Virus genome (UHGV): UHGV-0103738
Source: a virus
DNA: 24,037 nt
Direction: 5' to 3' (one strand)
Shown: piece after piece, positions 1 to 14,540 of the stretch
Numbering within the stretch: position 1 is the first letter of the stretch
Layout of the letters: each line of letters opens with the position of its first letter
Program-made: the position numbers and the translations under genes
Notes under the pieces: generated by a model
The model's input: only the letters and a program-made list of their open reading frames with translations
What the model was told of the DNA's origin: nothing
Database searches by the model: none

Positions 1-1032
1 ATGGGCGGTGAGTGCTTCATTGTTTTAACCAAAGAAAACAATGAGTTAAATGTTTCTATCCTGTCTGCTGATAAGTGCGACTGGACGCTCAACCGTGAAG
101 TAAGCAAAGAACGTGCGATATATCAAGGTGTGGAGTATGACGTGAACACAATGCGCCCTGTTGCATTTTGGTTTCGTAAAATCAACCTACTGACTCAGAC
201 TTACACAGGTGATAACTATCGCGTAGATGCTTCGCAAGTATGCCATTATTATCAACCACTTGCGGCTGAATCTCTGCGTGGCGTGACTGACTTCCTGCCA
301 GTGATTAAGGATATCGCACATCAAGACGCATTCCGCGAAGCTGTACTGGTCCAGAAACGAATTTCAGCTAGTAGCATGGCGTTCATCGAGCGTCCGAAAG
401 ATTCTGGTGACGATTTTGATACTGGTGAAGATGATGAACAATATCAAGCGCCGGAAGTTATTCACGATTTCGCGCCGGGTACTATTCAGGAATTGCCGGA
501 AGGGGCAACGATCAAGAGTATTCAATCCACGCAAAGCGGCGATGATTTCAATTCATTTAACGCTGGTATGTTCACTAGCATAGCAATGGGTCTTGGCGTG
601 TTCAATCAGGGCTTAACTGGCGATACTAGCCAAATAAATTACAGCGCTGCACGCTACGGCGAATTACTTCAAAGAACGCGCGTTAAAGCACTGCAAAACA
701 AATTAATTGAAACAGTGGTATTGCCAATTTTCGAAGCGTATCTACGCCATTATTCCGCGCGTGGTATTGTTCCGATTCGTATTACGGCAATTCCGCATAT
801 TATCGAGAACACTACTATTATTCGTCCGCGTTTTGAATCCGTCGATCCAATTAAAGACGTAAACGCCGAGATTGCTTTAATTGATAAAGGACTTAAATCA
901 CGTACTGCCGTTATATTAGAACGTGGTGACGATCCTGAAAAAGTATTCTCAGAGATTCAAGCCGAAAAGAGCGCACTAAATATTATCGTTGATGGTGAGG
1001 GTGAAGAAAAAAATTCCCCAGCCGATCCCTAA
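1..1032 (+). CDS. Portal protein, probably C-terminal part (ORF is open to the window start)
   Basis: 343-codon ORF ending 47 nt upstream of the prohead protease/capsid gene, which is the usual portal position. Acidic C-terminal region. No ribosome-binding context can be assessed at position 1, so the true start may lie upstream. Confidence 0.5.
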   Translation: MGGECFIVLTKENNELNVSILSADKCDWTLNREVSKERAIYQGVEYDVNTMRPVAFWFRKINLLTQTYTGDNYRVDASQVCHYYQPLAAESLRGVTDFLPVIKDIAHQDAFREAVLVQKRISASSMAFIERPKDSGDDFDTGEDDEQYQAPEVIHDFAPGTIQELPEGATIKSIQSTQSGDDFNSFNAGMFTSIAMGLGVFNQGLTGDTSQINYSAARYGELLQRTRVKALQNKLIETVVLPIFEAYLRHYSARGIVPIRITAIPHIIENTTIIRPRFESVDPIKDVNAEIALIDKGLKSRTAVILERGDDPEKVFSEIQAEKSALNIIVDGEGEEKNSPADP

Positions 1033-1078
1033 TAACCAACGGGGGGCGCAATGCCCCCAATTAATTAAAGGTGATTAA

Positions 1079-3091
1079 ATGCTTAAATTTCGCCGCGAAC
1101 TTAACGGTTACGGTGGAGTTATTAACGAAGGGCATAACGATCAATACGAATTTGAAATTGCTTTCTCCAGTGAACAGCCTTATCAGCGCCAATTCTGGGA
1201 TGAGCAAAATCAAGAAATGGTGGTATTAGATGAAATTCTGGTACATACACCGGAAGCGGTTGATCTGTCTCGTCTGAATAATAACGCTCCGTTGCTGTTT
1301 AATCATAATTTCGATAATCATTTAGGTGTCGTTTGTAACGCTCGAATCGATGCGGATAAAGTAGGCCGTGCGACCGTTAGATTCTCTAAGCATGGCACTT
1401 TGGCTAATGATATTCGTAATAAAGTCATTGAAGGTACGATGGAAAAAATTTCTGTCGGTTATGACATTAAAGAATATCACATCGATTATGCCAAAGGACA
1501 ATTGATTGTTACTAAGTTTGTTCCTTTCGAATTAAGTTTTGTTACGGTCCCGGCGGACGATTCGGTCGGTTTAAATCGCTCTCTAAATACTATCACAGTT
1601 AATTTGGAGGCTAAACGCGATATGACTAAAGAACAAATTGAAGAAATCAAAGAAGAACAAGAATCCGCTCAGGTTGAAGAAACTCCGGTAGAAGAAAATA
1701 AAGAACCGGAAGTTGAAGAAACTCAAGAGCGCCAAGTTGAAGAGAATAAAGAAGATGAAAATCTCGAAGACGGAAAAGACGCTGAACATCCTGAAAGTGT
1801 TGATGATGATAGTTCAACTGTTCGGGAAACAGAAGAAGTAAAAGAAGAACGTGAAGCTGCTCCGGTTGAAGAAGAAAAAACCGAGGAAGTGGCTGAACGT
1901 TCCGAAGAAGACGAATTAGAAATTCGCGAAATTGCACGCGAGTTAAATATTAACGAAGACGATGAAGAATTTAAACGCGCATTGGCAAATAAAGAAATTA
2001 CGCCGGAAGCATTCCGCACTAAGGCACTAAATAACATTACCAATGCTCAACGTAATAACGAACAAATTAATAAGGAACAAATCATGGAAAAAACTTTCGA
2101 TCTTAATAACGTAATCCGCTCCCTGGTAGATGGCGACGTGCTCGGCGCTAACGAAGCTGAATATTCCGCAATGGCTGCTACTGCAACTATGCAGCGTGGT
2201 CGTGCTGCTCGTGGTGGCTCTGTATTCGTTCCGGCTGCTGCTATGCGTGCTGCTGCTGATGGCAACACCAAAGCTAATCTGGTTGCTATCACTGACGAAA
2301 AACTGATGACTGAATCCTACATCGAAATGCTGTTGCCTCAGAGTGTTTTAGGCCGCCTCGGGGTGACTGTTTATAGTGGCTTGACTTCTCCGACCGCTAT
2401 TCCAAAAATGACTAAATCCAGCGTTGACGCTTTCGGATTCGTTGACGAAAATGGCGCTGCCCCCGAGTCACATGCGGAATTTTCGAACGTGAAACTGTCT
2501 CCGAAAACTTTTGCTGGTGGCAACCCGATCAGCCGTCAGTCGCTGAAAACCGTTCCGGGCATCGCTACCCTGATCACCGATCACATTAACAAATCTGTTC
2601 GGATCAAACTGGAACAACTGATTCTGTCTGATAAAGAAAATGCTCGTGGTCCGGCTGGTCTGGTTAAGCAACTGGTAGACGCTAGCCGCGTTACCAAGAA
2701 AGCTGCTTTCTCTTATAAAGACTTCCTGAAAGAAATTGCAGCACTGACTGACGCTGGCGTTCCTGCTCAGGCGATCAAGTTTGCGATGAGCGGTGCAACT
2801 GCTGCTGAACTGGAATCTACCCTGAAAGATAACGGCGTTTCCGGTTATATCATCGAAAACGGCAAACTGGCTGGTTACGAAGTAGTTACTTCTGGCGTTA
2901 TTCCGGCAGACCACATCGTTCTGGGTGACTTCTCCGGTATTACTATCGGTGAGTGGGGCGGTCTGGAACTGGATATGGATCTAACTACATACCGTGATCG
3001 TGGTGCGGTAGTGCCTCGTATCTTTGTAGATTTGGACTACGTTGTAGCACAGCCGGAAGCTCTGAAAGTTCTTCACATCTCCGCTGAATGA
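1079..3091 (+). CDS. Prohead protease / acidic scaffold-like linker / major capsid protein encoded in one reading frame (670 aa)
   Basis: Shine-Dalgarno AAAGGTGA at 1067-1074, ATG at 1079. N-terminal ~170 aa carry HK97-family prohead protease-like motifs (ISVGY, ELSFVTVPADD). A Glu/Lys-rich low-complexity segment spans ~1620-2080. The C-terminal ~335 codons switch to codons typical of highly expressed genes (ctg, cgt, ggt, gct, ttc), as expected for a major capsid protein. Stop is TGA at 3089-3091. Confidence 0.8.
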   Translation: MLKFRRELNGYGGVINEGHNDQYEFEIAFSSEQPYQRQFWDEQNQEMVVLDEILVHTPEAVDLSRLNNNAPLLFNHNFDNHLGVVCNARIDADKVGRATVRFSKHGTLANDIRNKVIEGTMEKISVGYDIKEYHIDYAKGQLIVTKFVPFELSFVTVPADDSVGLNRSLNTITVNLEAKRDMTKEQIEEIKEEQESAQVEETPVEENKEPEVEETQERQVEENKEDENLEDGKDAEHPESVDDDSSTVRETEEVKEEREAAPVEEEKTEEVAERSEEDELEIREIARELNINEDDEEFKRALANKEITPEAFRTKALNNITNAQRNNEQINKEQIMEKTFDLNNVIRSLVDGDVLGANEAEYSAMAATATMQRGRAARGGSVFVPAAAMRAAADGNTKANLVAITDEKLMTESYIEMLLPQSVLGRLGVTVYSGLTSPTAIPKMTKSSVDAFGFVDENGAAPESHAEFSNVKLSPKTFAGGNPISRQSLKTVPGIATLITDHINKSVRIKLEQLILSDKENARGPAGLVKQLVDASRVTKKAAFSYKDFLKEIAALTDAGVPAQAIKFAMSGATAAELESTLKDNGVSGYIIENGKLAGYEVVTSGVIPADHIVLGDFSGITIGEWGGLELDMDLTTYRDRGAVVPRIFVDLDYVVAQPEALKVLHISAE

Positions 3092-3217
3092 ACTCCTGTA
3101 GAACCATCTGAACCTTCCCCCGATTTGGGGGAAGAAAATCTGATTCCTGAACCGGAAGAAGAATCCCAGACGGTTAAGGCGAAAGCCACAGCTAAAAAAC
3201 AGCGTAAAACTAAAGAA
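3092..3217 (+). other. Putative in-frame TGA read-through extension of the capsid protein (42 codons, TAA at 3218-3220)
   Basis: The frame stays open for 42 codons after the TGA, encoding TPVEPSEPSPDLGEENLIPEPEEESQTVKAKATAKKQRKTKE. It ends 5 nt before a terminator hairpin. A parallel arrangement follows the tail tube gene. Confidence 0.45.
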
Positions 3218-3225
3218 TAATAATT

Positions 3226-3252
3226 AGCCCTGCCTAACGGTGGGGCTTTTTT
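3226..3252 (+). terminator. Rho-independent terminator after the capsid gene
   Basis: Stem AGCCCTGCC / GGTGGGGCT (9 bp, two G-U pairs), loop TAAC, followed by a T-run. Near-identical to the hairpin at 9094-9121. Confidence 0.75.
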
Positions 3253-3282
3253 GTATGTAAATACTCCATAAAGGGGGTAACT

Positions 3283-3573
3283 ATGTTCAAATTATCAGAA
3301 TCACAATTAAATCGAATGTTTAAAAGTGCTCCTGTATTTTCGGTGGAAGGTGGTAAATCAATTCGTGCTTATCATGAAATTACCACTACCGACGAACAAG
3401 GGGTAATTACAGAATCAGAATTTCTATTTTGTCGTGAGGGAGACTTAAATCAGGGTGATGTTGTCATTGTAGACGGTGAACGCTTCAAAGTTCAATACGT
3501 TAAGCGCAATGGTGATAATACTTCTGATTGCTTTATTGCTCGTGCAGGGGGTACACATGCTCGCTACCGTTAA
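3283..3573 (+). CDS. Hypothetical virion protein (head-tail connector or head completion candidate, 96 aa)
   Basis: SD AAAGGGGGTAA directly upstream of ATG 3283. Sits between the capsid and tail genes. No recognisable motif. Confidence 0.5.
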   Translation: MFKLSESQLNRMFKSAPVFSVEGGKSIRAYHEITTTDEQGVITESEFLFCREGDLNQGDVVIVDGERFKVQYVKRNGDNTSDCFIARAGGTHARYR

Positions 3574-4901: not shown

Positions 4902-7900
4902 ATGCAGTCGATCCAATTTAAACGCACACAAACGGCTGGTAAAAAACCAACGCCGGAACAATTATCACAGGGCGAGATCGCCTTACAACTGGCGGACCAT
5001 GTGATTTACACCAAAGATAAAAATAATAACGTAGTCCAAATTAGTGTTTCTCCAGAAAAACACGCTGAACTGAATACGAAAGTAGACACCAACAAGGTCA
5101 ACACAGATAAAGTCATTTCAGCAAATAAAACCGAAGCCGCTAATAATCTGGCTACGGCTAAAGCTGAACTTAATCAGACTATCACTTCTACCCGTGATAC
5201 TCTCAATGCTTCAATCACTGCTGGCGATACCGCAGCCAACAAGCGAATTGATGCTTTGACTACCACAGTAGGTAACAATAAAACCGAAGCGGCTAACGCT
5301 CTGGCGGCTGCTAAGACTGAACTGAATCAGACTATTACTTCAACCCGCGATACTATCAACGCGACAATTAACAAGAACAAGACAGATATTAATGCGCGAG
5401 TTGATCAGACGAATACCAACGTTACCAACTTAACGAATACTGTCGCAGCAAATAAATCAGCAATAGAAAAGACGGTAGCGGATAATAAGAAAGATGCGGA
5501 CACGAAGATCACCAATCTTACTAGTACGGTCTCTGCGAATAAGACAGCCATTGAAAGAACTGTTGCAAATAACAAGGCCAGTGCCGATGCCGCAATTGCC
5601 GCAGCTAACCAGCGAATTGATTCTATTGAAGGTAGTGCCGATGCTGCTTACATCAAGAAGAATACCAATACTAAGCATGGTGGGTATCTGTTAAGCAAGA
5701 CAGCTAACTATTTGGAAGACCAGACAGCGAGAGATCTTAACTACTTTGGTGCTTTCCGTACCAATGGTCAAGATGGACTCATGGATCTAACTCTTAATGT
5801 TCCTCATTCTGCCGGTAAAGCGCACGGTCGCGGATTTACTTTCCGTTATGCGTCTGGTGGATCTCGTGTTGAAACCTATGGTTTTGATAGAGAAGGACAG
5901 AAGAACTTTAGCTATAAGATGTATCACGAAGGTGATAAGCCGACTCCTGGCGAGATTGGCGCATACACCAAAGCCGAAGTTGATAAGATGTTTGTTAAAA
6001 ACGTCGTTATGTCTGTTCCCAATTCTAGCGAAAACGTATCTGCATATTTCAAATTGGCAACCGCAACAATTCCACAAAACGGGCGTAGTGTGTTTTTCCG
6101 TATTCATGGTGGTAATGGTTACAACGTTACGGCATATGATCAGGTTGACGTAGTAGAAATTCTTCTGCGTAGTGGTAACGATAGACCTAAAGGTCTTAAC
6201 GTAATTGCATACCGTAGAAATACAAACAAAGATTTTGAGGTATTTGCTGTCAATACTTCCGGTGATAACTATGATATCTACGTGAAATATCAGCGTTATA
6301 CCGATAACGTTATTGTCGAATATGGGAAATCTGTTTATGTAAGTTTGACGGTTTATGATACGCCGGAAGCCACGTTAATTAAACCTTCCGTTGGTGTTAT
6401 CGGTGGTCGCAACGTAACTCTTTTTAATACTGAAAATAAACGTGGTGTGTTAAGTTTTGATGATAACACACAAAACAGCTATGACATTGTTCACTTGAGT
6501 AACGATAAAGGTACTGGACGGAAATATATTCGTAAATTCCGTAGCAACTATAACGAAATGGTTTGGCATGAAACCGTTCAGGGTGCTGTATATCGTCTTG
6601 CTACCGGTGCTACAGATTCTACAGAAGTTATTAGAATTGATTCTAATAGTGCAATACCGGGTAATTATAAAGGATATGTAATTACTGGTAAAATGGAATT
6701 GCACGGTAGTGGTAATGCGATGACTTTACATCGCCAGACTGGTCAAGCTGCATATATGGCGTGGTGGGATCGTCGTGATGGTAAAAACCAACGTAGTGGT
6801 TATATCGGTCATGCGGATGGTACTAGTGATGGTTTTGTGTGGCGTAATGATGTTGGTGCTAACTCATTTGATTTGGAAGGTAGTGGACAAGTAAATTTGA
6901 CTACAGGAAAAACAAAAATTGTATATACCAATGGTCAATATTATTCCGCTAACGCTGATGCATTCCGTATGATTTACGGTAAGTATGGTGCATTCTGGCG
7001 AAATGATGGTGGTAAAGTTTATCTGTTGTCTACTGCCGAAAATGATAGATTTGGTGGTTGGAACGGAAACCGACCATTCATTTACGATTTGACTAACGGT
7101 AAAGTTACTTTAGGTGGTGATGGTAACGAAGGCGCATTAGTTCTCGAAAGAGATAGCCGTGCTGCTCGATTTGCTGGCGATACATATATCGAGAAAGGGT
7201 TTTTAACCTTCTCTGCTGGGAGAAGCGGATCTCGTGATTATATTCGATTTAATCATTGGGGTGATAGTAATAATGCCCGTGATAACGTTTTGTACCTAGA
7301 AGATAGTCAAGGTAGACATTTTAGCACAGAGCGTGCGATGGGTACTGGTGCTCTTAAAGCAAACTTCTTAGGCGATCTTGAAGTTGGTGGTAAGTTTACT
7401 TGGGGTAAAAATACAGCTACATCCAGCTTTAATATTCGTGCTTGGGGTAACGATAGTCGTAAACAAGTATTAGAATGTGGTGATGAAAGTGGTTGGCATT
7501 GGTATACCCAACGTCCGGGCGGTCCGGGTACTACGGCAATTGAGTTTGCCATCAACGGTACTGTTAAGCCTCAAGCAATTCACACTGGCGGTAATATCAC
7601 GCTTAACGGTGCTGATATTGAATTTCGTCGCACTGGTAATAAGCATATCTGGTTTAGAGATCCAACTGGATTAGAACTAGGTTTGATGTATTCTGATGAT
7701 GCTGGTGTTATTCGCTTCCGTGGTCAGAAACAAGCCCAGACGTGGAAACTTGCGGATAAGATGATTCATCTTGAATCTGGTAGCGTCGGCGGATCTGATA
7801 AAGGTTTGATTCGTGGTAACGTTTCTGGTGGTAGCTGGTCTAGTTGGCGCGATCGTGCATCCGGCTTGCAAGTTGATTGCCCTCAATCAACCGATTCCGC

Positions 7901-8432
7901 TCATAACATCTGGAAAGCTACTCATTGGGGTAAATATCACATTGCAGCAATGGGTGTACACGTTCCTAGCGGTACTATCGGTAACGCTCTTGTTCGTCTG
8001 CATGTTAACGATACTAACTTTGACTTTAACGCTGCTGGTGACTTTACCGCAGGTCGTAACGGTAGCTTTAACGATGTTTACATTCGCTCTGACTCCCGTT
8101 TGAAGATTAACAAGGAAGAATTACAGGACGGTGCATTAGAGAAAGTAAACTCACTGAAAGTCTACACCTACGATAAAGTTAAATCTCTTTCCGATGACAC
8201 GGTGATTAAACGCGAAGTAGGTATTATTGCTCAGGATCTGGAAAAAGTATTGCCGGAAGCAGTAGGTATTCAATCCACCGAAGATCCAGAAAATCCAGAA
8301 GCAATCAAGACTATTTCTAACTCTGCTGTCAATGCTTTAATCATCAAGGCTATGCAGGAAATGGACGCCAAATATAAAGCACAGATCGAAGCATTACAGA
8401 AAGAAATTGCCGAACTGAAAGCAACTAAATAA
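4902..8432 (+). CDS. Side (L-shaped type) tail fibre with a C-terminal intramolecular chaperone / self-cleaving domain (1176 aa)
   Basis: SD GAGGTGA. N-terminal fibre-type motifs, a repeat-rich N/T/A shaft with 51-aa repeats, and a long Gly-rich beta region. The C-terminal ~114 aa begin RSDSRLKINKEE and end in a coiled coil, as in peptidase S74-type chaperone domains of phage fibres and endosialidases (Ser/Lys spacing S1063/K1068). Confidence 0.8.
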   Translation: MQSIQFKRTQTAGKKPTPEQLSQGEIALQLADHVIYTKDKNNNVVQISVSPEKHAELNTKVDTNKVNTDKVISANKTEAANNLATAKAELNQTITSTRDTLNASITAGDTAANKRIDALTTTVGNNKTEAANALAAAKTELNQTITSTRDTINATINKNKTDINARVDQTNTNVTNLTNTVAANKSAIEKTVADNKKDADTKITNLTSTVSANKTAIERTVANNKASADAAIAAANQRIDSIEGSADAAYIKKNTNTKHGGYLLSKTANYLEDQTARDLNYFGAFRTNGQDGLMDLTLNVPHSAGKAHGRGFTFRYASGGSRVETYGFDREGQKNFSYKMYHEGDKPTPGEIGAYTKAEVDKMFVKNVVMSVPNSSENVSAYFKLATATIPQNGRSVFFRIHGGNGYNVTAYDQVDVVEILLRSGNDRPKGLNVIAYRRNTNKDFEVFAVNTSGDNYDIYVKYQRYTDNVIVEYGKSVYVSLTVYDTPEATLIKPSVGVIGGRNVTLFNTENKRGVLSFDDNTQNSYDIVHLSNDKGTGRKYIRKFRSNYNEMVWHETVQGAVYRLATGATDSTEVIRIDSNSAIPGNYKGYVITGKMELHGSGNAMTLHRQTGQAAYMAWWDRRDGKNQRSGYIGHADGTSDGFVWRNDVGANSFDLEGSGQVNLTTGKTKIVYTNGQYYSANADAFRMIYGKYGAFWRNDGGKVYLLSTAENDRFGGWNGNRPFIYDLTNGKVTLGGDGNEGALVLERDSRAARFAGDTYIEKGFLTFSAGRSGSRDYIRFNHWGDSNNARDNVLYLEDSQGRHFSTERAMGTGALKANFLGDLEVGGKFTWGKNTATSSFNIRAWGNDSRKQVLECGDESGWHWYTQRPGGPGTTAIEFAINGTVKPQAIHTGGNITLNGADIEFRRTGNKHIWFRDPTGLELGLMYSDDAGVIRFRGQKQAQTWKLADKMIHLESGSVGGSDKGLIRGNVSGGSWSSWRDRASGLQVDCPQSTDSAHNIWKATHWGKYHIAAMGVHVPSGTIGNALVRLHVNDTNFDFNAAGDFTAGRNGSFNDVYIRSDSRLKINKEELQDGALEKVNSLKVYTYDKVKSLSDDTVIKREVGIIAQDLEKVLPEAVGIQSTEDPENPEAIKTISNSAVNALIIKAMQEMDAKYKAQIEALQKEIAELKATK
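5124..5429 (+). repeat. Two tandem 153-nt (51-codon) repeat units inside the fibre shaft
   Basis: AATAAAACCGAAGC(C/G)GCTAA...CTGAA(C/T)T(T/G)AATCAGACTAT(C/T)ACTTC recurs at 5124 and 5277. Protein units are NKTEAANNLATAKAELNQTITSTRDT... and NKTEAANALAAAKTELNQTITSTRDT... Confidence 0.7.
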
Positions 8433-8488: not shown

Positions 8489-8962
8489 ATGTCTCAGCAA
8501 TTCAAAGATATTTTTACTGGTGGTCTGGTAAGTCTGTTCTATCACGCCGATACCACTAACACCGACCTTGCCGATGAAGCATACGAAGAAATTAAAGAGT
8601 GTGCTGGTTTTCCTGAAACTGGTATCGAGCGCGGTACTGTAGAAGTTAAATCCTTCTCTTCTCAGTATAACCGTAAACTGGTAGGTAAACTGAACGTTCC
8701 TGATCTGACTCTGACCGTTAACTACATTCCTGGTGATGCGGTACATGAGAAGCTCATAAAGGCTGCCGAAGACGGTACGCGTATTCAAATCAAAGTTGAA
8801 TACTATGTTGACGCCGGAAAACAGACTGGTATTCGCACTGCTTTCAACGGCTTTATTTCTAAAGTTGCTATGAACGGTGGCGATGAAGAAGTGGTAACGA
8901 AAGAGTTTACCTTTGCTGTTGATGGTGCTCCGCTGAAACAGCAAATCTTCACTGCCGGATGA
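8489..8962 (+). CDS. Major tail tube protein (157 aa)
   Basis: SD AAGGGGTAA. Strongly biased highly-expressed codon usage. Lies upstream of the chaperone and tape-measure genes and is followed by a strong terminator. Stop is TGA at 8960-8962. Confidence 0.7.
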   Translation: MSQQFKDIFTGGLVSLFYHADTTNTDLADEAYEEIKECAGFPETGIERGTVEVKSFSSQYNRKLVGKLNVPDLTLTVNYIPGDAVHEKLIKAAEDGTRIQIKVEYYVDAGKQTGIRTAFNGFISKVAMNGGDEEVVTKEFTFAVDGAPLKQQIFTAG

Positions 8963-9136: not shown

Positions 9137-9643
9137 ATGGCAAATGTCGTTAAAGTTCCTGGCTGGATCGGGTCATCTGCTGTATCGGTGACGGGTAAGC
9201 GATGGATGAAAGAAGCATTAACAGCTTTAAAAGTTCCGGCTCCGCGTAATATGTCGGCAATGGCTGGTCGTGGTATGGATACGGTTGTAGCTACTGCATC
9301 GTGGTCTACTTCATTGGGTAATAACTGGGGTGTAACTGCTTCAAACTATCCTGTTTCCGGTATGCAAAGCAAAGGATCTATGGAGAACCCCGAAAACGTG
9401 GGCGTAGGGCGTCTGGTTGGCGTTATCGTTGGTCAATTCAATGGCGGTACTCCTACTATGGCTGTATATCTCCAGAACGGTAGAGCGGGGAATATAACCG
9501 TTAATTTGGGTGGTGCTGCTGTCACTGTTCCTTATAACAGTATGCAAAGTGGTTTTCATTACTATTGGTTAAGCAATCCTCCGGCTGCTTTCCTTACCAA
9601 CATTAAGAAGACTGGCACTAAGCAGACTTTGAAAATCTCTTAA
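9137..9643 (+). CDS. Hypothetical tail-associated protein (168 aa, Gly/Ser/Thr/Asn-rich)
   Basis: ORF with upstream GGAG, located between the tube gene and the chaperone genes. Composition suggests a beta-rich structural protein. No specific motif recognised. Confidence 0.45.
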   Translation: MANVVKVPGWIGSSAVSVTGKRWMKEALTALKVPAPRNMSAMAGRGMDTVVATASWSTSLGNNWGVTASNYPVSGMQSKGSMENPENVGVGRLVGVIVGQFNGGTPTMAVYLQNGRAGNITVNLGGAAVTVPYNSMQSGFHYYWLSNPPAAFLTNIKKTGTKQTLKIS

Positions 9644-12860: not shown

Positions 12861-13421
12861 ATGTTCAAATCCAAGAATATTAAAATCACAGATTTTACTC
12901 TTAAATCAAAACAACCTTTCTTCAAGGCGCAATCTATTTCTGGTAAGTTCCAGCGTCGCTTTACTGGCATTCATTTTTATGAAGCAGAATTTACAGCTAA
13001 TTTCATGGCTCAGGATATTAACGAAGTAAAAGAATTTGTAGCACGTCACCTTTTTGGTCGTCCTTTTAGTGTGCCACTGTCTTACTTTTCAAAATATACA
13101 GGTGATGTACGCCAGATGGTTACGGCTGCTGCTGGTACTGCTCGCGGTGGGCGTAAGGTGAGAATCTCCAACTTCACCGGAACACTGAAAGCGGGAACTA
13201 TCATCCAGTTTGAGAACCACAAGAAAATCTACACGATCACCGAAGACGTGAAATCAGGTGGTGAAATGAAACTCTTCCCTAACTTGCGTCAAAACGTCCT
13301 GGCTGGTGAGGTGATCAAGTATCAGAACGTAGAAGGCGAATTTGTTCTCAAAACTGAAAATATCGATTGGAAGATCGCCCAGATTGGCAAGATGAAATTC
13401 GAATTAGTGGAGAATGTATAA
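12861..13421 (+). CDS. Minor tail protein (distal tail protein candidate, 186 aa)
   Basis: First gene after the tape measure protein. Stop TAA overlaps the next start (TAATG at 13419-13423). Confidence 0.5.
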   Translation: MFKSKNIKITDFTLKSKQPFFKAQSISGKFQRRFTGIHFYEAEFTANFMAQDINEVKEFVARHLFGRPFSVPLSYFSKYTGDVRQMVTAAAGTARGGRKVRISNFTGTLKAGTIIQFENHKKIYTITEDVKSGGEMKLFPNLRQNVLAGEVIKYQNVEGEFVLKTENIDWKIAQIGKMKFELVENV

Positions 13422-14074
13422 TGGCAACTATTCAGGAATCATTCAGCAAACTATGCACTAATCTGGACTTCATCGAGGTCTACAACGACCAGACAGGTCA
13501 GAATGTGTCTAGATTGACTCTACCGCAGCTTTTCTCTACTGGATCGATGTTTCACATTATCGAAGTAGTAACCGCGTCAGGGGACGTTCTACGGCTTACA
13601 GATGGGTATTTCGATCTGGACTATAACGGATTTACGTATCTCGCAACGGGTGATTTTCTTCAAATCTCATCGAATACCGAAGAGAAGGAGATCAACAACA
13701 ACGGGATCAACGTAACTGTTTCTAACGTTCGCGAAGAATACATTACCCTGATTCGAAACAAGCAATTCGATAAATCTGATGTGAAAATCGAGATGGTTTT
13801 CCTTAACCCCAACACGGGCAAGGTTGAAACTACTTACCCTGTTTTCCGTGGGGTAGTCGATTCCATCGGTATTAACATCGAACATGAAGATGATGAGTGT
13901 AAAAACGAATCAGAATTTCAGCTTAATAGTATCTGGGAAGTTCTAGATAAAAACGCTCGTAGTCATGCCTCCGATGGTATCCACCGATCCTATGTTGGAA
14001 ACGAGAACGATCTATTCTTCTCCCGTGCCGGGAAGTGGCAAAGCGAAAGCAAGTGGCATTCATCGAAGAAATAA
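13421..14074 (+). CDS. Minor tail protein (217 aa; start at ATG 13421 rather than track start 13367)
   Basis: Same frame as track ORF 13367..14074. ATG 13421 overlaps the upstream stop by 1 nt. Sits at the lambda gpL-like position of the tail-tip cluster. Confidence 0.5.
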   Translation: MATIQESFSKLCTNLDFIEVYNDQTGQNVSRLTLPQLFSTGSMFHIIEVVTASGDVLRLTDGYFDLDYNGFTYLATGDFLQISSNTEEKEINNNGINVTVSNVREEYITLIRNKQFDKSDVKIEMVFLNPNTGKVETTYPVFRGVVDSIGINIEHEDDECKNESEFQLNSIWEVLDKNARSHASDGIHRSYVGNENDLFFSRAGKWQSESKWHSSKK

Positions 14075-14120
14075 TCCCTTCTCCCTAAGCCTAGTAAATA
14101 ACAGCATGGAGGTATTCAAC

Positions 14121-14540
14121 ATGCTAAAAACTAGGCTTATCACCGATTACATCAATTCTTTAATAGGTCAGGAGTTCGTTCAAGGCGAGAATGATTGCAA
14201 TCTCATTGCATGTAAGATCATCGATATTCTCGCTGGTACTGACCTATATAATTCTCTTTATAAAAAATATTCAACTAAAGAAGAAGGCTTGAAAATCTGC
14301 AAAGAATTAAGCGGATATTCAAACATCCTTCAACCAATTAAGAAACATTTCAAATTAGTCACTGATGATTTACAGGACGGCGACTTACTGGTCACAGCCC
14401 ACAAATTAGGAAACCGTAATTATTATTCCGTAGTTCCTCATTATTCCGGTTATGGCCTCGTTGAAGAAGATGGTATCTGGATGACCATTCCTGTTTCAGA
14501 CATTGACTATGAACAAGTTTATAGATTCGGGGGTGAATAA
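14121..14540 (+). CDS. Tail assembly protein, gpK-like with possible NlpC/P60-type Cys motif (139 aa)
   Basis: GGAGG at 14108-14112 sits 8 nt before ATG 14121. ENDCNLIAC resembles the catalytic Cys motif of NlpC/P60 domains. Located immediately upstream of the J-like gene, with a TAATG overlap at 14538-14542. Confidence 0.5.
   Translation: MLKTRLITDYINSLIGQEFVQGENDCNLIACKIIDILAGTDLYNSLYKKYSTKEEGLKICKELSGYSNILQPIKKHFKLVTDDLQDGDLLVTAHKLGNRNYYSVVPHYSGYGLVEEDGIWMTIPVSDIDYEQVYRFGGE

Follow-up and report, generated by a model that had tools for sequence, protein, structure and literature searches.

This study concerns a 24,037-nucleotide stretch of viral DNA, UHGV virus genome UHGV-0103738 (hereafter the window), which is the late region, comprising head and tail genes, of a prophage of Escherichia coli and Shigella. 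Within it a single open reading frame (ORF), 1079-3091, encodes a protease, a scaffold-like region and a capsid domain in one chain. Our analysis suggests that this is probably a nested in-frame gene, in which most of the coat protein would be made by initiation at an internal codon, ATG 2084 (Met336), along with a little full-length chain bearing a tethered protease. Internal initiation at ATG 2084 is well, though indirectly, supported by sequence analysis, and all of the computational tests that were run agree with heavier translation of the part that follows Met336 than of the protease and linker that precede it. An initial annotation, made from the DNA letters alone, had proposed that the capsid part is translated more than the protease and scaffold part. 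This proposal is supported by a step in codon usage, which would reflect ribosome flux, by a Shine-Dalgarno (SD) sequence placed before the ATG, by the open RNA around it, by conservation, and by controls in known phages.

The fused gene and its codon usage

The ORF and its domains are as follows.

1079-3091, plus strand: single ORF of 670 amino acids (74.1 kDa), comprising protease, acidic linker, helical scaffold-like region and HK97-type capsid, with TGA as the stop codon
1196-1564, plus strand: Peptidase_S78 (HK97-type prohead serine protease), residues 40-162 (Pfam E = 1.8e-10, 41.6 bits against a cut-off of 21)
1547-1894, plus strand: acidic linker, predicted to be disordered, residues 157-272 (AlphaFold2 confidence score, pLDDT, below 50)
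1904-2257, plus strand: predicted helical, delta-domain-like (scaffold-like) region, residues 276-393 (AlphaFold2)
2318-3076, plus strand: HK97-fold capsid domain, residues 414-666 (Pfam Phage_capsid, E = 6.6e-25)

The ORF lies directly 3′ of the portal gene (Phage_portal_2, E = 2e-45) and is an uninterrupted tripartite protease-scaffold-capsid gene. By sequence its protease is a member of Peptidase S78, the HK97 gp4 family; H76, H81 and S125 of the predicted protease do not vary across 40 sequences with identities as low as 39%. An AlphaFold2 model built from 40 sequences (mean pLDDT 66) placed the protease at residues 22-156, disorder at 157-272, helices at 276-393, a low-confidence junction at 393-413, and the HK97 fold from about residue 414, with pLDDT values of 70-89 across most of residues 414-670. 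One long predicted helix, residues 309-339, spans Met336. The segment between residues 182 and 335 contains 56 Asp or Glu residues and has a pI of 4.2. The capsid chain in PDB entry 8GTA_A, from the sole relative with a solved structure, matches residues 411-663 with E = 3.7e-25.

In E. coli and Shigella the capsid gene has over 100 protein clusters, with identities of 93-98%. Of 5,426 complete E. coli genomes, 55 contain it, under the plain annotation 'phage major capsid protein'. A megablast search gave no DNA-level match of the ORF among phage records, in which relatives were seen at the protein level only, and a scan of species-representative genomes with whole-protein alignment yielded no confirmed relative. 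Relatives were therefore drawn from viral contigs.

The codon adaptation index (CAI) was calculated against 28 E. coli K-12 ribosomal-protein and elongation-factor genes, including tufA and fusA, a reference set which itself scores 0.70. The values in the window were:

Protease, residues 1-180: 0.41
Linker, residues 181-335: 0.53, or 0.39 without Glu and Lys
Residues 336-670: 0.65, the highest in the window
Tail tube gene, 8489-8962: 0.61
Most other window genes: 0.30-0.52

By this calculation codon bias is not uniform across 1079-3091, and shuffling of synonymous codons within the ORF gave z = 5.7 (p < 5e-5) for the step. The preferred codons gained are CTG (4/15 and 0/5 of Leu codons before the step and 21/30 after it), ATC, AAC, CAG, GCT, CGT, and GGT or GGC. 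A simple shift in G+C at third codon positions was rejected as the cause, since this content rises modestly and the preferred codons include the T-ending GCT, CGT, GGT and GTT. An artefact of amino-acid composition was rejected as well, because the step persists in the synonymous-only permutation and when Glu and Lys are omitted. The initial annotation had described a switch near Met336 to codons typical of highly expressed genes, similar to those of the tail tube gene. Both parts of that description were borne out by the calculation, with the reservation that the change-point is not unique in the window copy, as discussed below.

The step is sharper in the close relatives, which are 32 IMG/VR loci with 88-94% protein identity. 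It is present in all 32, with CAI values of 0.41, 0.52 and 0.73 for the protease, the linker and the part from Met336, respectively, or 0.38, 0.36 and 0.71 without Glu and Lys. The CAI of the capsid part ranges from 0.65 to 0.80, and in 21 of these loci the best change-point falls 2-3 codons before the equivalent of Met336.

The proposed internal start at ATG 2084

The sites that bear on initiation within the ORF are listed here.

2071-2076, plus strand: internal SD sequence TAAGGA, 7 nt 5′ of ATG 2084, pairing energy -6.2 kcal/mol
2084-2086, plus strand: in-frame ATG, codon 336 (Met336), the proposed major internal initiation codon
2084-3091, plus strand: proposed major product, 335 amino acids (35.4 kDa), comprising the C-terminal half of the helical region and the capsid fold
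1606-1624, plus strand: second candidate internal start, with GGAGG at 1606-1610, an 11-nt spacer, and ATG 1622-1624 (Met182) at the protease/linker junction
1067-1075, plus strand: SD sequence of the full-length start, AAAGGTGAT, -4.3 kcal/mol, before ATG 1079; conserved in 33/33 sequences (the window copy and the 32 close relatives)

The initial annotation had noted AAGGAA 6 nt before an in-frame ATG at 2084. The ATG is codon 336 of the ORF and the spacing of 6 nt (CAAATC) was confirmed; the motif occupies 2072-2077, not 2073-2077 as first given. Two other descriptions did not hold. The SD had been called strong, but its pairing energy with the 3′ end of 16S rRNA is about the median for gene starts in the window (-6.2 vs. 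-6.3 kcal/mol). Met336 had been placed at the start of the capsid domain, but the Pfam fold begins at residue 414, and the ordered capsid chain of roseophage vB_DshS-R4C begins at the equivalent of about residue 400. Given that ordered chain, Met336 would lie approximately 65 residues upstream of the mature N-terminus; it is about 65-78 residues before the capsid fold, within the predicted helical scaffold-like region. A product begun at Met336 would carry the conserved second half of this region (FDLxxxxRSL ... GGxxFxP).

The SD of ATG 2084 ranks 9th of 152 internal in-frame ATGs and is stronger than that of the ORF's own start (-6.2 vs. -4.3 kcal/mol). The ATG sits within an A/U-rich unstructured stretch, where the RNA from -30 to +30 has a folding energy of -1.7 kcal/mol compared to an ORF mean of -10.3, which places it at the 97th percentile of least structured sites. 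When the two properties were combined in one filter (SD ≤ -5 kcal/mol and minimum free energy of folding ≥ -5 kcal/mol) and applied to 143 internal in-frame ATGs in 22 ORFs, only two passed, ATG 1622 and ATG 2084, both of them in ORF 1079-3091.

TAAGGA, the 7-nt spacing and the ATG are invariant in 33/33 sequences. The residues encoded between TAAGGA and the ATG vary among EQI, DSK, EKN and ESI, and one codon upstream is present in some sequences and absent in others. The SD requires the Lys codon AAG, which is the less preferred one and accounts for 7 of the 40 Lys codons of the ORF; it is kept in all 33. An internal promoter was rejected as an explanation: promoter-like sites in 900-3400 were no commoner than in shuffled sequences, with matches at chance level, and none was found upstream of 2084. 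Cleavage of the transcript by an RNase within the A/U-rich stretch might contribute, but would itself depend on the internal start.

More distant fused genes were found in prophages of Escherichia, Klebsiella, Enterobacter and Serratia (DCP80 and L058-L072, 38-43% identity) and in E. coli phage ep3 (28%). In all of them the protease has a low CAI, 0.24-0.40, and the capsid part a high one, 0.60-0.79. The position of the step differs. In L059, L060, L062 and L063 it lies at codons 330-336, and these have a conserved Met (residues 314-325) 8 residues before the position aligned with Met336, preceded by GGTGGT or GGCGGT (-6.3 to -6.4 kcal/mol). In DCP80 and L058 it lies at the protease/linker junction, where there is a Met near residue 180; the SD of this junction Met is AAGGAA (-6.2 kcal/mol) in DCP80 and weaker (-3.9 kcal/mol) in L058. 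In ep3 the step is near codon 221, and an ATG preceded by GAGGA is found at Met216. The junction SD contains the rare Gly codon GGA in L059, L060, L062, L063 and L072. The codon adaptation of the linker is thus low or high according to lineage, tracking whichever start lies upstream. The general pattern suggested by these sequences is one in which the protease would be translated little and the capsid much, with a boundary that shifts between two SD-ATG sites.

A search with residues 336-670 against 1.84 billion representatives provided a further view of gene architecture. Most of the top 150 representative relatives are fusions of 560-760 residues. Some are scaffold-capsid genes of 410-445 residues without a protease, and others are capsid genes of 345-349 residues which, according to putative gene calls, begin 8-20 residues upstream of the Met336 equivalent. 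The existence of the latter indicates that a unit extending roughly from Met336 to the end can stand alone. One apparent case of a naturally split gene, H65, annotated as a prohead protease only, was rejected as uninformative, as it is what remains of a prophage interrupted by an IS3 element.

Among phage records the closest is that of DCP80 (L002, PQ671644.1, 1-13786), which is labelled Straboviridae/Tevenvirinae and has a length of 141 kb. At its left end are a terminase, an ORF of 1542 nt that precedes the capsid gene, and the HK97-type fused capsid gene itself, each carrying the annotation 'hypothetical'. This record may have been misclassified, or it may result from chimeric assembly.

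Known systems and alternative explanations

The I/Z genes of phage Mu are arranged in the manner of lambda C/Nu3. In lambda, the protease-scaffold gene C contains a nested in-frame scaffold gene, Nu3 (Shaw and Murialdo, 1980, as cited in PMC8508860). As proposed for ORF 1079-3091, an internal in-frame start in a head-assembly ORF yields more of the C-terminal part than of the protease-bearing chain, and a codon step is seen: the CAI of gene C is 0.35 before the Nu3 part and 0.46 within it (z = 2.2, p = 0.014), the latter nearing the values of lambda D (0.49) and E (0.52). This step is much smaller than the one in ORF 1079-3091. The systems differ also in that the nested product of lambda is the scaffold, with the coat protein E encoded by a separate gene, whereas in ORF 1079-3091 the coat itself would be nested, and in that the lambda protease is S49/ClpP-like rather than S78.

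HK97 provides a control of another kind. Like ORF 1079-3091 it has an S78 protease, a capsid fold preceded by a helical N-terminal region, and a difference in codon adaptation between protease and capsid, but these are encoded by two separate genes, gp4 and gp5, and the protease is targeted non-covalently. The CAI is 0.39 for the protease gene and 0.54 overall for gp5, in which the delta domain and the mature part are equally adapted (0.57 vs. 0.54). In ORF 1079-3091, all is in one ORF and the step falls inside the helical region. Since gp5 is a scaffold-capsid fusion with a single start and has no internal step, domain-specific selection is disfavored as the cause of the step in ORF 1079-3091.

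Tripartite protease-scaffold-capsid genes have been described in Salmonella phage Gifsy-2 (Effantin et al., 2010, as cited in PMC12315714) and in Pseudomonas phage MD8, as gp5 (PMC8508860). As in the window, protease, central scaffold-like region and HK97-fold capsid are in one ORF directly after the portal gene, but the protease is ClpP/S49-like and not Peptidase_S78. The Gifsy-2 gene (L079, NC_010393.1, 22471-24561) shows a weak rise in codon adaptation. Its codon 221, immediately past the ClpP-like domain, is an in-frame ATG with a strong SD (GAGGAG, -8.8 kcal/mol) and comparatively open RNA (-6.0 kcal/mol); this ATG is a candidate Nu3-like internal start. As a test across families Gifsy-2 is weak, because there is little codon adaptation in any of its genes.

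The R4C capsid gene, of 629 residues, is a homologous fused gene whose product has been solved as a T = 7 capsid (PDB 8GTA; PMC10276861); it has approximately 30% identity to ORF 1079-3091 and comes from a phage of a marine host. Only the C-terminal 268 residues were seen as ordered protein, and the paper describing the structure contains no discussion of the N-terminal 361 residues or of their removal (PMC10276861). In the literature covered, which was incomplete, no report was found of an internal start yielding coat protein from a fused protease-capsid gene.

Several considerations weigh against a major start at ATG 2084. Its SD is average for this phage, not strong. The change-point in the window copy is ambiguous, with near-equal maxima at codons ~335-357 and ~470-474, because of a de-optimised patch at codons 415-470:

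2321-2488, plus strand: de-optimised patch, codons 415-470, CAI 0.39

Codon bias reflects long-term average flux and not the actual product ratio, and the 32 close relatives are non-independent observations. In one clade, L064-L070, there is a Met at the Met336 position with no SD and with structured RNA, and the rise in codon adaptation is gradual. Met336 lies inside a predicted helix, so that the short product would lack half of the scaffold-like region, and HK97 capsid protein aggregates when the delta domain is missing (PMC10275583). Finally, PMC8508860 and PMC12315714 describe one gene for three functions, with an internal start unmentioned.

The patch (about 170 nt) has 67-83% nucleotide identity to all 32 close relatives, with the protein conserved. 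It resembles a recombination patch from an unsampled lineage, and two promoter-like matches within it (2381-2409 and 2424-2452) are at chance level.

The alternative that survives best, although we regard it as unlikely, is that only the full-length 74-kDa precursor is made and is then self-processed, which is the general assumption for tripartite capsid genes. The codon step would represent domain-specific selection, for accuracy, for folding or for a slow N-terminal part, and AAGGA followed by Met would be ordinary coding for Lys-Glu/Asp and Met, residues which could be conserved for protein reasons. The average SD, the position of Met336 within the helix and the published descriptions of a single gene are all in keeping with such a precursor. 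Nevertheless, equal flux predicts equal codon selection, as is seen in HK97 gp5, and the step from 0.41 to 0.73 in the close relatives far exceeds known accuracy effects within genes. The step occurs at a Met and not at a fold boundary, and its position shifts between two SD-ATG sites across relatives. A single precursor would also entail a 1:1 ratio, one protease for each coat subunit, and the R4C capsid has 415 coat copies (PMC10276861).

It is less probable still that ATG 1622 is the main internal start, giving a 53-kDa linker-scaffold-capsid chain like HK97 gp5, with ATG 2084 minor or unused. This site has the stronger SD (-9.3 kcal/mol) in unstructured RNA and is conserved in 32/33 sequences; the step at the equivalent junction in DCP80, L058 and ep3 and the stand-alone scaffold-capsid homologues of 410-445 residues speak for it as well. 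Against it, there is no codon-usage step at ATG 1622 in the family of the window copy: without Glu and Lys, the linker (residues 182-335) has much the same CAI as the protease (0.36-0.39 vs. 0.37), and the change-point is at Met336. Its 11-nt spacer is longer than the optimum, and the mosaic relative L075, without Met182, retains the SD and Met336.

E. coli prophage variants with another protease module match the window from about nt 1631, just past ATG 1622.

A purely historical step, left by a capsid part that had been a separate gene with high expression in another phage, was acquired by recombination and has not yet equilibrated, seems very improbable: the gene is mosaic, some E. coli prophages sharing only nt ~1631 onwards, and the patch at 2321-2488 is divergent, but the low-to-high pattern is common to four lineages that are 28-43% identical to one another and has therefore been long maintained, the recombination breakpoint observed is at the protease/linker junction and not at 2084, and the fused architecture is widespread.

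Proposed products and other features of the window

Under the proposal of a nested gene with its major start at ATG 2084, the weak start at ATG 1079 would supply a small amount of the 74-kDa protease-linker-scaffold-capsid chain, while most ribosomes would load at TAAGGA/ATG 2084 to give the 35-kDa protein from Met336, in which the HK97-fold capsid is preceded by a helical, delta-domain-like sequence of about 65 residues. The two forms would presumably co-assemble through their identical capsid parts. With a few full-length chains incorporated, the procapsid would contain covalently tethered S78 protease. Cleavage by this protease, probably near residues 395-400, would then remove the N-terminal parts of both forms and yield a mature coat protein of about 29 kDa. 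Initiation at ATG 1622 may add a minor scaffold-capsid form, a linker-capsid chain of 53.4 kDa; in some relatives the equivalent of this site appears to be the major start.

A broader scheme can be put forward tentatively, and we consider it rather doubtful at present. Fused protease-scaffold-capsid genes might generally be nested, with a choice of two internal starts, the first following the protease and the second lying in the scaffold-like region. The dominant start would switch between close relatives, a change tracked in the codons of the linker, and would set the ratio of protease to scaffold to coat. In this E. coli family, stop-codon read-through would add a fourth, C-terminally extended variant of the coat.

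Fused genes of this type are common, and their annotation, a single 'major capsid protein', carries the implication that each coat subunit comes with a protease. The making of many coat subunits with few proteases would be accounted for by an internal start, and the protease would enter the procapsid by covalent tethering, where HK97 relies on non-covalent targeting. The annotation of such genes, and their expression for work on capsids or virus-like particles, would have to change. The combination of a codon step with an SD-ATG in open RNA may serve as a sequence test for hidden internal starts; it recovers lambda C/Nu3.

The possible read-through extension lies at the 3′ end of the gene.

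3092-3223, plus strand: in-frame open extension of 42 codons (TPVEPSEPSPDLGEENLIPEPEEESQTVKAKATAKKQRKTKE) after the TGA at 3089-3091 (context TGA-A), followed by two stops
3226-3247, plus strand: terminator-like hairpin and T-run, directly after the extension

The TGA and the open in-frame tail are kept in 32/32 close relatives, in which the tail falls into length classes of 84, 126, 129, 132 and 135 nt, all multiples of three. Among the distant fused relatives checked (clades D and S), 11/11 end in TAA without such a tail, some having a short Ala/Lys-rich tail within the ORF, and the R4C capsid gene ends in TGA-TGA, also without one. Purifying selection on substitutions in the tail was not clearly seen. 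The tail may represent an extension that is added by stop-codon read-through to a fraction of the coat protein.

At the other end of the gene, a G+C-rich hairpin without a T-run is located at 1042-1058 (GGGGGCGCAATGCCCCC), in the gap that separates the stop codon of the portal gene from the start of the capsid gene; it is conserved in the upstream flanks of 33 relatives. The SD of ATG 1079 is weaker than those of most gene starts in the window. Most window genes use G-run SDs (GGGGG, AAGGGG) of -8 to -12 kcal/mol, for example those at 3283, 3989, 8489, 14540, 18890, 19612 and 19969. Three of the starts listed as first in their ORFs are probably wrong and should be moved from 3476 to 3557, from 13367 to 13421, and from 13965 to 14121.

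An ORF of 1176 residues, 4902-8432, lies after the head-completion genes and before the tail tube gene and has a homologue in E. coli ETEC1718 called 'tail fiber domain-containing protein'. After the tail tube gene, an ORF of 168 residues, 9137-9643, has the N-terminal domain of the T-even adhesin Gp38 (Pfam E = 3.9e-15). The fibre and adhesin genes are unusually placed for a lambda-like tail module.

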